DNA from: Ignavibacteria bacterium
GTDB taxonomy: Bacteria; Bacteroidota; Ignavibacteria; UBA10030
Direction: 5' to 3'
Assembly (NCBI GenBank): GCA_016873755.1
Contig: VGWB01000001.1
Location: 3,387 to 67,386, forward strand
Length of the DNA: 64,000 nucleotides
Shown here: positions 5,904-7,892 of the stretch, piece after piece
How the letters are laid out: the number at the start of each line of letters is the position of its first letter
Numbering within the stretch: the first letter of the stretch is position 1
Made by a program: the position numbers and the translations under genes
Notes under the pieces: generated by a model
What the model was told of the DNA's origin: nothing
Databases searched by the model: none
What the model saw: only the letters and a program-made list of their open reading frames with translations

Positions 5904-7892
5904 ATGACGTATGCACATCTTACAGAAGATCAGGTCGCACAGCTTGTCCGGCAAGGATGCGCAGCCAGCGACTGGCGGTCGGTCACCGTTGCCCCGGTGT
6001 GCGATCTTGACCGGATCAGTGGTGTCCATTTCTACGGCGCTGTGCAGATCGGAAGCACAGCCGGCACCCACGTCGTCGATGGGGTAGAGGTCATGTGTGG
6101 CATCTACCGTGCGTCGATTGCGGATTGCGTGGTCGGCGACCGGGTTCGCATCGCCGACATCGGCTCGGTCATCTCGAACTATGTCATTGACGATGGCGGC
6201 GTCATTCAGGACGTTGGATCAATCGTGGCGGAGGCCGGGTCTCCGTTCGGCAACGGCGTCGAGCTGGAGACCATCAACGAAGGGGGAGGACGGGGTGTCA
6301 GGATCATCAATGATCTCACCTCTCAAGTTGCCTATGTGCAGGGAGCCCTTCGGCATAACAGTGAGTTCAGAAGAAGGCTTAACGGCATGATCGATGGGAA
6401 AGCGGCCGCGGCAAGGGCAGACAAAGGTCGCATCGGTGAACGAGCGCGCATTCTTCATTGCGGCTCGCTTCGTAATGTCATGGTGGGACCTCATGCATTT
6501 CTTCACGGCGCTCAGTACCTCGAAAACGGGACGATCAGCAGTTGCGCAGAGCATCCGACGGAAGTGGGTGAAGGCGTCCAGGCGAAGTCGTTTATCCTCT
6601 CCGAAGGCGCGCGCGTTGACAATGGGGCGATCATCGAGAAGGCCTTCGTCGGGCAGGGGGTGAAGATGGGCAAGCAGTATTCCGCAGAGAGCTCGCTCTT
6701 CTTTGCCAACTGTGAGGCCTTCCACGGAGAGGCGGTGGCTTTGTTCGCGGGGCCATACACCGTGACCCACCACAAGTCAACGTTGTTGATCGCCGGTTTG
6801 GTTTCGTTTTACAACGCCGGCAGTGGATCGAACCAGAGCAATCACATGTACAAGCTGGGCCCCGTGCATCAGGGTGTGCTGGAGCGCGGCTGCAAGACGG
6901 GGTCTTTCTCATATCTCATGTGGGAGAGCCACATCGGAGCGTTCAGCGTGGTCATCGGAAAGCACTACGCCAACTTGAATGTTCCGAACTTCCCGTTCTC
7001 GTATATCAATGAGGAAGACGGAGCTTCGAAGATCATTCCGGGCCTCAACCTCACTTCAGTCGGAACAGTCCGTGACGCAGAGAAGTGGCCCAAGCGTGAC
7101 AACCGAAAGGCTCCCATCAAGCGCGATCTCATTGTCTTCGAAGTGTTTTCGCCATACACTGTTGAGAAGATGCGGCGGGGTCGGGACGAGCTGCTCTCCC
7201 TCAGCGAGAAGGTGCCCAAGGAGAAATCGTTCGTCGTTGTCGGCGGTGCGCAGCTGAGTCGTCTCCTTCTAAAAAAAGGAGCAAAGTACTACTCGCTGGC
7301 CATCGCACGGTACCTGAATGAGAAACTCATCGACCGGCTCCGGGAAGCAGTCTCCAGAACCAGGGACTGGAAAGCAGCGACCGGATCGCTGGTGCCGACA
7401 ACTGTTCTCAAGAATTCGACGGAATGGATGGACGTCAGCGGATTGTTGACTCCACGCGAACGGCTGGTGCAGCTCGAAGCTGCAGTCGCGGGTGGTGGGA
7501 TAACCACGTACGACTTGCTGCTGGCTGAATTCCGGAAAATGTACGATTCCTACTGGGCCGACGAGTGGCGCTACGTATATGACGTGTACGCAAAGGAGTA
7601 CAACGTTCAGCCCGACACTCTTACCAAGGAACAGGCTCTCGCCGCCATCAACGAGTGGGAGAGCGCAGCGACGTCTCTACACGGAATGATTCTTGAAGAT
7701 TCCAAGAAGGAATTCGGGGCGTTCGCGAGAATCGGCTACGGCGTCGACCAACCGGAGGATCTCATGCAGCGGGATTTCGAGGCGGTTCGGGGAACGATTG
7801 AAACGAACAGCGTTGTGCAGAGGCTCGTGAACGAGGGGGCCGCGATCCAAAGACGCAAACAAGAATTTGCAGAACTTATTACTTCTCTTTGA
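5904..7892 (+). CDS. Conserved hypothetical protein, 662 aa, DUF4954-like; the N-terminal third has hexapeptide-like (beta-helix-like) repeats
   Basis: Long ORF with good codon usage and no catalytic motif I recognise. It lies between the two nagB genes. The N-terminal region reads 'IADCVVGDRVRIADIGSVISNYVIDDGGVIQDVGSIV' with a periodic [LIV]-G-x-x-x-x pattern. Confidence 0.55.
   Translation: MTYAHLTEDQVAQLVRQGCAASDWRSVTVAPVCDLDRISGVHFYGAVQIGSTAGTHVVDGVEVMCGIYRASIADCVVGDRVRIADIGSVISNYVIDDGGVIQDVGSIVAEAGSPFGNGVELETINEGGGRGVRIINDLTSQVAYVQGALRHNSEFRRRLNGMIDGKAAAARADKGRIGERARILHCGSLRNVMVGPHAFLHGAQYLENGTISSCAEHPTEVGEGVQAKSFILSEGARVDNGAIIEKAFVGQGVKMGKQYSAESSLFFANCEAFHGEAVALFAGPYTVTHHKSTLLIAGLVSFYNAGSGSNQSNHMYKLGPVHQGVLERGCKTGSFSYLMWESHIGAFSVVIGKHYANLNVPNFPFSYINEEDGASKIIPGLNLTSVGTVRDAEKWPKRDNRKAPIKRDLIVFEVFSPYTVEKMRRGRDELLSLSEKVPKEKSFVVVGGAQLSRLLLKKGAKYYSLAIARYLNEKLIDRLREAVSRTRDWKAATGSLVPTTVLKNSTEWMDVSGLLTPRERLVQLEAAVAGGGITTYDLLLAEFRKMYDSYWADEWRYVYDVYAKEYNVQPDTLTKEQALAAINEWESAATSLHGMILEDSKKEFGAFARIGYGVDQPEDLMQRDFEAVRGTIETNSVVQRLVNEGAAIQRRKQEFAELITSL

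Follow-up and report, generated by a model that had tools for sequence, protein, structure and literature searches.

A DUF4954-family protein with a predicted left-handed beta-helix, linked to glucosamine-6-phosphate deaminase and acetyl-thioester metabolism, as a candidate amino-sugar acetyltransferase

Introduction

Which reaction of amino-sugar metabolism might be catalyzed by the uncharacterised 662-amino-acid (aa) protein that is encoded beside nagB, the gene for glucosamine-6-phosphate (GlcN-6-P) deaminase, in an Ignavibacteria bacterium? The gene lies in a stretch of 64,000 nucleotides (contig VGWB01000001.1, positions 3,387 to 67,386; hereafter the window, to which coordinates refer unless another locus is named), and a preliminary description, made from the sequence alone, had offered its product as a candidate for a missing step such as N-acetylglucosamine-6-phosphate (GlcNAc-6-P) deacetylase or transacetylase activity. 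The evidence presented here—family membership, conservation, predicted fold, and gene linkage across phyla—supports an acetyl-handling function tied to GlcN-6-P, with a deacetylase not favoured and a transacetylase close to the reading preferred here, in the acetylating direction. That the DUF4954 protein is a thioester-dependent acyl or acetyl transferase acting in GlcN-6-P metabolism is judged rather probable; that it is, specifically, an N-acetyltransferase which uses acetylated acyl carrier protein (acetyl-ACP) or acetyl-coenzyme A (acetyl-CoA) to convert GlcN-6-P into GlcNAc-6-P is put forward more tentatively.

The DUF4954 family and its invariant core

The protein and its predicted regions are as follows.

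5904..7892, + strand: DUF4954 + DUF6819 protein; ATG..TGA open reading frame (ORF), 662 aa, with a predicted left-handed beta-helix and a helical C-terminal domain
6021..7043, + strand: beta-helix region, residues ~40-380, in two parts at ~40-135 and ~175-380 (AlphaFold model)
6744..6923, + strand: ultra-conserved core, residues 281-340, FAGPYTVTHHKSTLLIAGLVSFYNAGSGSNQSNHMYKLGPVHQGVLERGCKTG, mean column identity 76-86% (122 sequences)
7152..7889, + strand: all-helical C-terminal domain, residues 417-661, which includes DUF6819 (AF2 predicted local distance difference test [pLDDT] about 90-98)

The start codon is backed by homologues aligning from residue 1. The assignment to DUF4954, which had been suggested for the ORF, is confirmed by Pfam (PF16314; residues 3-433, E=6.5e-172, 572.5 bits against a cut-off of 26.2, model positions 1-432 of 433), and a second family that the preliminary description had not named, DUF6819 (PF20683), covers residues 496-645 (E=1.7e-36, 125.9 bits against a cut-off of 23.5); both memberships are above the gathering score. 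No NCBIfam model matched the protein. The family comprises more than 8000 clusters at 90% identity, with the same two-domain architecture; clustering at 50% identity leaves 2,566 representatives, of which 887 reach E<=1e-30. Its length is constant at about 650-670 aa and it shows no informative fusions; one candidate fusion (P0121, 832 aa) was rejected, the extra length being an internal duplication. A divergent DUF4954/DUF6819 paralogue of 731 aa and ~20% identity was observed in a Phycisphaerae locus (L031, 13169..15364, - strand), two genes from the canonical copy. Searches of the PDB by sequence, with the single protein or with a 30-sequence profile, returned chance matches only (E of 1 or more), and the literature search found no functional study of DUF4954 or DUF6819 proteins. 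A DUF4954 protein is encoded by Treponema pallidum between rpmI and lgt, according to one paper.

Conservation was computed over 122 sequences whose overall identity is only 30-49%, and ~30 positions were nonetheless found to be at least 99% conserved. The polar positions among them are E126, E276, H290, N304, S307, N310, S312, N313, H314, Y316, R328, S334, S366, R390, D391, K394, R398, Y463, and D510, with H290, N304, S307, N310, S312, N313, H314, Y316, and R328 all falling within the core at residues 281-340. As far as known motifs go, the earlier remark that a catalytic motif cannot be recognised in the protein stands, but it passes over a strikingly invariant polar core. This invariant set of His, Asn, Ser, Tyr, Arg, and Lys residues may be of the kind that makes up the acceptor and CoA site of GlmU.

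Predicted fold

A first AlphaFold model, built on 30 close homologues (pLDDT 67), was poor in the conserved core, with residues 267-413 below 50, and was discarded. The model used, a monomer from a 105-sequence alignment, has a pLDDT of 85.4 and a predicted template modelling score (pTM) of 0.86. It predicts a left-handed parallel beta-helix (LbH), interrupted by two helices at residues 140-169, and residues 290-322 are its sole stretch with pLDDT below 50. In a fold search with this model, the acetyltransferase domain of Escherichia coli GlmU scored 13.8, LpxD 13.4 and 13.1, YdcK 13.3, LpxA 12.6-13.0, and sugar N-acetyltransferases such as QdtC 12.7; the non-catalytic LbH domains of GMPPA/B and eIF2B scored 12.2-13.9, and gamma-carbonic anhydrases about 12. 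Foldseek was in weak agreement with the LbH assignment. The remote-homology search found a metabolic, acyltransferase-type LbH fold rather than a well-characterised non-metabolic one. By sequence, Pfam Hexapep gave no match, and only LbH_EIF2B was hit, below threshold (residues 190-257, 23.8 bits against a cut-off of 54). The preliminary description had read a hexapeptide-like periodicity, and from it a beta-helix, in the N-terminal third; the periodicity itself is not significant (aliphatic residues at i/i+6, z=1.1-1.7 against shuffles), whereas the beta-helix is recovered by the model and by the fold search, though over residues ~40-380.

The core at residues 281-340 is presumed to be the active-site loop. 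By analogy with hexapeptide acetyltransferases, in which an extended loop bears the catalytic His, an invariant polar loop on an LbH scaffold would be expected to contribute to an active site formed between subunits. The C-terminal helical domain could dock a carrier protein, a role played in LpxD by the helices at its C-terminus.

Genomic context across phyla

Gene linkage was surveyed in 80 loci from species-representative genomes and in the window (81 loci, at least 8 phyla), with neighbours counted by hidden Markov models over all ORFs within 6 kb of the DUF4954 gene. nagB was found near DUF4954 in 57 of the 81 loci, on the same strand in 53 and adjacent on that strand, within 400 nt, in 46. 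An ACP-like carrier gene is present in 46 (same strand, 44), and a gene for an ADP-forming ligase in 30. In 27 of these loci the ligase gene is immediately preceded by an ACP-like ORF; in two of the three others, the contig may end before the ACP position. The acetate kinase gene (ackA) occurs in nine loci, in the same position as the ligase, and that for phosphotransacetylase (pta) in seven. An HMGL-like gene is found in 17 loci, usually in the order DUF4954-ACP-HMGL-nagB. All six partners are absent in 11 of the 81 loci. Five arrangements recur.

Arrangement I: ACP-ligase-(nagB)-DUF4954
Arrangement II: DUF4954-ACP-HMGL-(nagB)
Arrangement III: (nagB)-Pta-AckA-DUF4954-(nagB)-ACP, chiefly in Planctomycetota
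Arrangement IV: a bare DUF4954/nagB pair
Arrangement V: DUF4954 alone amid genes for HflX, AroA, DnaN, DnaQ, RNase Z, and RadA, in Bacteroidales

Linkage to nagB was seen in every phylum-level group sampled, including Ignavibacteria/Bacteroidota, Gemmatimonadota, Spirochaetota, Planctomycetota, and Calditrichota, and in differing gene orders, which argues for selection rather than inherited synteny. The association with amino-sugar genes, first suspected from one locus, is thereby borne out across phyla. Furthermore, the ligase and the AckA+Pta pair catalyze one and the same overall reaction (acetate + ATP + thiol <-> acetyl-thioester + ADP + Pi); their occurrence in the same slot, a non-orthologous displacement, indicates that acetyl-thioester metabolism is a second functional link of DUF4954 besides GlcN-6-P. 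In a locus from the window's own clade (L081, 61% identity to the window protein), a phosphopantetheinyl transferase (ACPS) gene (14701..15267, - strand) and a second ACP gene (9202..9444, - strand) flank DUF4954-ACP-HMGL-nagB.

A Pfam census of 119 other putative operon mates revealed no further recurrent partner, and amidohydrolase/NagA was not among the 25 most frequent families of these mates. Operon mates of the EPSP-synthase family were considered as MurA and rejected, having been identified as AroA. A PIG-L deacetylase gene beside DUF4954-nagB in a Planctomycete (L082) was likewise rejected as a partner, as it is not recurrent. In one Spirochaetales locus (L018), the operon runs ACP-ligase-NagB-DUF4954-GlmU-like, and the GlmU-like protein (12110..13612, + strand) carries Asp where GlmU has its catalytic His and is without an NYDG..NK region; a conserved UDP-N-acetylglucosamine (UDP-GlcNAc) operon was considered from this adjacency and rejected, as the adjacency did not recur in the loci of 55 relatives. 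This GlmU-like family, of ~500 aa, has a well-conserved uridyltransferase half, and its LbH half keeps TGSD where GlmU has AGH; its members are probably uridyltransferase-only GlmU variants outside Bacteroidetes. Separately, antisense ORFs of ~285 aa were seen opposite nagB in L011-L013, L034, L038, L051, L053, L064, L065, L068, and L080; they beat the real nagB in longest-ORF selection, which calls for caution in ORF-based censuses.

The operon in the window

The genes around the DUF4954 ORF are as follows.

207..2306, + strand: DUF4855-ROK sugar-kinase fusion, with which the + strand cluster opens (Pfam DUF4855 E=2.3e-62, ROK E=1e-65)
2485..2727, + strand: ACP-like carrier protein, 80 aa (Pfam PP-binding E=1.7e-15; DLGADSMQS phosphopantetheine-attachment motif)
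2733..4877, + strand: ADP-forming acyl/acetate-thioester ligase, ACD-type (domains CoA_binding, Succ_CoA_lig, ATP-grasp_5)
4895..5701, + strand: nagB copy 1, GlcN-6-P deaminase (TIGR00502, 394 bits; equivalog cut-off, 237)
7926..9308, + strand: HMGL-like (DRE-TIM) enzyme (Pfam HMGL-like E=9.5e-21)
9328..10140, + strand: nagB copy 2 (TIGR00502, 423 bits, likewise above the equivalog cut-off)
10236..10976, - strand: NanE-type N-acetylmannosamine-6-phosphate 2-epimerase (Pfam NanE E=8.8e-58; NF002231, 259 bits; cut-off, 189)
10977..14090, - strand: GH38 mannosidase, which like NanE converges on the + strand operon

This operon is a composite of arrangements I and II, and looks like a merger of the modules ACP-ligase-nagB-DUF4954 and DUF4954-(ACP)-HMGL-nagB. 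The DUF4954 gene does lie between nagB copy 1 and the DRE-TIM gene, as had been described, but only the downstream gap is short (33 nt); the upstream gap measures 202 nt (5702..5903). This 202-nt gap matched no Rfam family, the glmS ribozyme among them, and showed neither a terminator-like site nor unusual RNA folding (z=+0.58); co-transcription of the DUF4954 gene with its neighbours is plausible. The ACP-like gene, overlooked in the preliminary description, stops 5 nt before the ligase gene, a proximity suggesting that the ligase may load the carrier protein rather than free CoA, although carrier-protein loading has no known precedent in the ACD family. The best NCBIfam model for the HMGL-like protein is nifV, at 115 bits and far under the cut-off of 463; to judge from its sequence, the enzyme is a distant relative of homocitrate, isopropylmalate, and citramalate synthases. 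The neighbouring NagBs keep the catalytic residues D72, D141, H143, and E148 and the allosteric-site residues (~55% identity to E. coli NagB), and on these residues are genuine. The two copies are 63% identical to each other; the stretch that reads TFNMDEY in copy 2, as in E. coli NagB, is TFALDEY in copy 1. NagA, GlmU, GlmM, and GlmS were not found among the scanned larger ORFs of the window.

Several further observations concern the surroundings. Relatives of the DUF4855-ROK gene occur near DUF4954 in six loci, and in Bacteroides thetaiotaomicron a DUF4855 gene, BT0442, is listed beside an alpha-N-acetylglucosaminidase locus (PMC10434189). At 14421..24704 (+ strand), the window encodes a 1866-aa BNR/sortilin-repeat protein, relatives of which were found near DUF4954 in nine loci, and then two paralogous caspase-domain (Peptidase_C14) proteins carrying CARDB and Glucodextran_B-like domains. 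At 24853..28400 (+ strand), the ORF of a sodium:solute symporter extends ~330 nt past the start listed for a 704-aa Amidohydro_3 protein; unless the second gene really starts further downstream, the two overlap to an unusual extent. No other amidohydrolase was found in the window, and the Amidohydro_3 protein does not resemble NagA.

Proposed function

An acetyltransferase acting on GlcN-6-P is proposed because the LbH relatives GlmU and LpxD N-acylate glucosamine, and because the recurrent partners are NagB and enzymes or carriers of acetyl-thioester and ACP metabolism. While the fold class, the conservation of the family, its gene linkage, and the authenticity of NagB have been shown above, we infer the substrate, donor, direction, oligomeric state, and physiological role as follows. 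The DUF4954 protein would be a catalytic member of the LbH acyltransferase superfamily, forming a family of its own (DUF4954 + DUF6819). NagB would provide the GlcN-6-P acceptor, either from fructose-6-phosphate (Fru-6-P) and NH4+ or from imported amino sugar, and the ADP-forming ligase—or AckA+Pta in Planctomycetota—would charge a thiol carrier with acetate. The donor would be acetyl-S-ACP where a dedicated carrier is encoded and acetyl-CoA elsewhere, and the reaction, acetyl-S-ACP (or acetyl-CoA) + GlcN-6-P -> GlcNAc-6-P + thiol, would be exergonic, yielding a thermodynamically favourable amide. The NagB reaction runs freely in both directions, and acetyl transfer would draw it toward the making of amino sugar from Fru-6-P and ammonium. 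On the model of other LbH acyltransferases, the protein would form a trimer whose active sites lie where subunits meet; either H290 or H314, on the invariant 281-340 loop, may be the catalytic His, and R328, R390, K394, and R398 may bind the sugar phosphate and the phosphopantetheine phosphates. Glucosamine-1-phosphate (GlcN-1-P) is less likely as the acceptor.

A core biosynthetic role is suited both to retention of the gene in the minimal genome of T. pallidum and to its housekeeping context in Bacteroidales. Furthermore, a uridyltransferase-only GlmU was reported in 30 of 45 Bacteroidetes genera, and Capnocytophaga canimorsus, in which GlmM and the acetyltransferase are missing, nevertheless converts GlcNAc into UDP-GlcNAc (PMC4358021). 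The latter implies that the phylum has a route from GlcNAc-6-P to GlcNAc-1-P, with the eukaryote-like order of steps. DUF4954 is thus a candidate to fill the acetylation step left vacant by uridyltransferase-only GlmU.

Several points weigh against an acetylating role. The literature search found biochemical or genetic data for no member of the family, and the window protein has no match above threshold to a Hexapep or GlmU model in Pfam or NCBIfam. No known catalytic His could be aligned to it, although the invariant H290 and H314 are present in the loop, and both the trimer and the active-site role of residues 281-340 are drawn by analogy. The window operon looks catabolic (ROK kinase, NanE, GH38, and two nagB, without NagA), which would suit a deacetylase equally. 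Why N-acetylation should need a private ACP and its own acetate-activating enzyme, despite cellular acetyl-CoA, is unexplained, and the fact that ADP-forming ligases and AckA+Pta usually run toward acetate and ATP in anaerobes hints at the opposite direction. Finally, none of 55 metagenomic GlmU-like relatives of the Spirochaetales protein (L087-L141, 40-52% identity) has DUF4954, nagB, ligase, or ACP within 9 kb.

Alternative explanations

The catabolic appearance of the window operon and the absence of NagA from DUF4954 operons are also what would be expected if the protein were a non-homologous GlcNAc-6-P deacetylase, that is, an analogue of NagA in which a metal-bound or His-activated water on the beta-helix hydrolyses the N-acetyl group, NagB then deaminates GlcN-6-P, and the ligase or AckA+Pta activates the freed acetate. 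This function, one of the two named in the preliminary description, is considered unlikely here. No characterised LbH protein is known to be an amidohydrolase; this consideration, together with the recurrence of thioester-forming enzymes and a carrier as partners, is why a deacetylase is not favoured. It would also leave the dedicated ACP (46 of the 81 loci) and the ACPS gene of L081 without explanation, and one Planctomycete locus already has a PIG-L-family deacetylase gene beside DUF4954-nagB. In addition, the Bacteroidales housekeeping context and the retention in T. pallidum suit a catabolic enzyme poorly.

Next, and again unlikely, is a transferase that depends on acyl-ACP but moves some other acyl group or serves some other acceptor. 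It might, for example, N-acylate GlcN-6-P much as LpxD acts, using an unusual acyl group that the ligase and the HMGL-like condensing enzyme had assembled on the dedicated ACP; alternatively, it might shuttle acetyl groups from ACP to CoA or back. LpxD and LpxA, both of which use acyl-ACP, are among the best structural matches, ACP is frequent and stands directly beside DUF4954 or the ligase, and in about 12 loci the ACP gene has an HMGL-like gene after it (DUF4954-ACP-HMGL). The window ligase, moreover, scores best against a 4-hydroxybutyrate-CoA ligase model, yet below that model's cut-off. Replacement of the ligase by AckA+Pta in Planctomycetota points instead to acetyl or a very short acyl group, many loci have only DUF4954 and nagB, without an ACP or HMGL-like gene, and lipid or glycoconjugate genes are not recurrent among the operon mates.

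A non-catalytic LbH partner that binds and controls NagB or the acetate-activating enzymes, on the model of GMPPA, the LbH domains of eIF2B gamma/epsilon, or the C-terminal domain of ADP-glucose pyrophosphorylase, is improbable, given that the ~30 near-invariant residues, many of them polar, are concentrated in one loop in a manner typical of active sites, and that the gene is often encoded without nagB nearby.

Least probable is an energy-conserving de-acetylation, in which the acetyl group of GlcNAc-6-P would be moved to the thiol of ACP or CoA, the ligase or Pta+AckA would yield acetate and ATP, and NagB would pull the unfavourable first step by removing GlcN-6-P. The ligase, Pta+AckA, and an HMGL-like synthase are all typical consumers of acetyl-thioesters in anaerobes; the recurrent partners could thus all be acetyl-thioester sinks, which would make DUF4954 the acetyl-ACP source, and this scheme accounts for the catabolic context in the window and for a carrier and an ATP-coupled enzyme co-encoded with nagB. 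The amide-to-thioester transfer is, by a rough estimate from textbook free energies, ~25 kJ/mol uphill, and the overall reaction (GlcNAc-6-P + ADP + Pi -> Fru-6-P + NH4+ + acetate + ATP) is roughly estimated to be about thermoneutral physiologically, so that flux would be marginal; the T. pallidum retention and the housekeeping context are left unexplained, and no precedent is known for acetyl transfer from an amide to a thiol for a gain of ATP.

Comparison with known systems

By none of the sequence models tested is the window protein a member of the GlmU, LpxA/D, gamma-carbonic anhydrase, NagA, or GNAT families. GlmU models (TIGR01173/NF0109xx) gave no match at E<=0.01, and the likeness to GlmU is at the level of fold only. 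Compared with the C-terminal domain of GlmU, an LbH GlcN-1-P N-acetyltransferase, the predicted beta-helix has about double the length and is broken by helices, the N-terminal uridyltransferase gives way to a helical C-terminal domain of 245 residues, and a long conserved loop core and a dedicated ACP partner are added; the acceptor is likely the 6-phosphate and not the 1-phosphate. LpxD and LpxA, which are acyl-ACP-dependent UDP-glucosamine acyltransferases, differ in that their models do not match the window protein, that the DUF4954 partners point to acetyl and not to a hydroxy-fatty acyl group, and that the C-terminal domain of DUF4954 proteins is much larger; no lipid A genes were found near DUF4954.

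In the proposed reaction the protein would resemble eukaryotic GNA1, which acetylates at the 6-phosphate stage (GlcN-6-P + acetyl donor -> GlcNAc-6-P; PMC10087520). The folds differ, GNA1 being a GNAT protein and the window protein a predicted LbH, with no Pfam match to a GNAT domain; DUF4954 would match both GNA1 and the GlmU C-terminal domain in function without being homologous to either. Like nagA, the DUF4954 gene holds the place beside nagB that nagA classically occupies; unlike NagA, an amidohydrolase TIM barrel, the product has no amidohydrolase domain and is predicted to be a beta-helix. Gamma-class carbonic anhydrases are compact LbH proteins of about 170-210 aa with three Zn-ligand histidines, a class into which the protein does not fall. 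The xenobiotic, maltose, and galactoside hexapeptide acetyltransferases (PaXAT, VatD, MAT, and GAT), to which the likeness is one of structural inference only, are about 200 aa long, transfer acetyl from acetyl-CoA onto hydroxyls, and have no ACP partner. Overall, DUF4954 stands apart from characterised LbH transferases by its predicted helix of about 340 residues with a 245-residue helical domain, its invariant loop, its carrier, and its acetate-activating partners.

Implications

UDP-GlcNAc is essential for peptidoglycan and lipopolysaccharide, and many Bacteroidetes that lack the GlmU acetyltransferase are generally regarded as needing no supply of amino sugars for growth. The association of DUF4954 with nagB, ACP, and acetate activation is strong and, in its detail, new; given the predicted fold and the links to NagB and to acetyl-thioesters, the protein is a concrete candidate for the vacant step of amino-sugar N-acetylation. 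Were a deacetylase or a reverse transacetylase to prove correct, it would represent new chemistry for the beta-helix fold, and energy-conserving de-acetylation would represent a new way to conserve amide-bond energy in amino-sugar-fermenting anaerobes. If the proposed GlcN-6-P N-acetyltransferase is correct, acetylation would take place in these bacteria at the 6-phosphate stage, as in eukaryotes, with ammonium incorporated via NagB instead of glutamine via GlmS. Two DUF families, along with the ACP, ligase, and HMGL-like genes beside them in the FCB group, Planctomycetota, Spirochaetota, and others, would then gain an annotation, and the enzyme would be a possible drug target in envelope biosynthesis in Bacteroides, Porphyromonas-type organisms, and Treponema pallidum.

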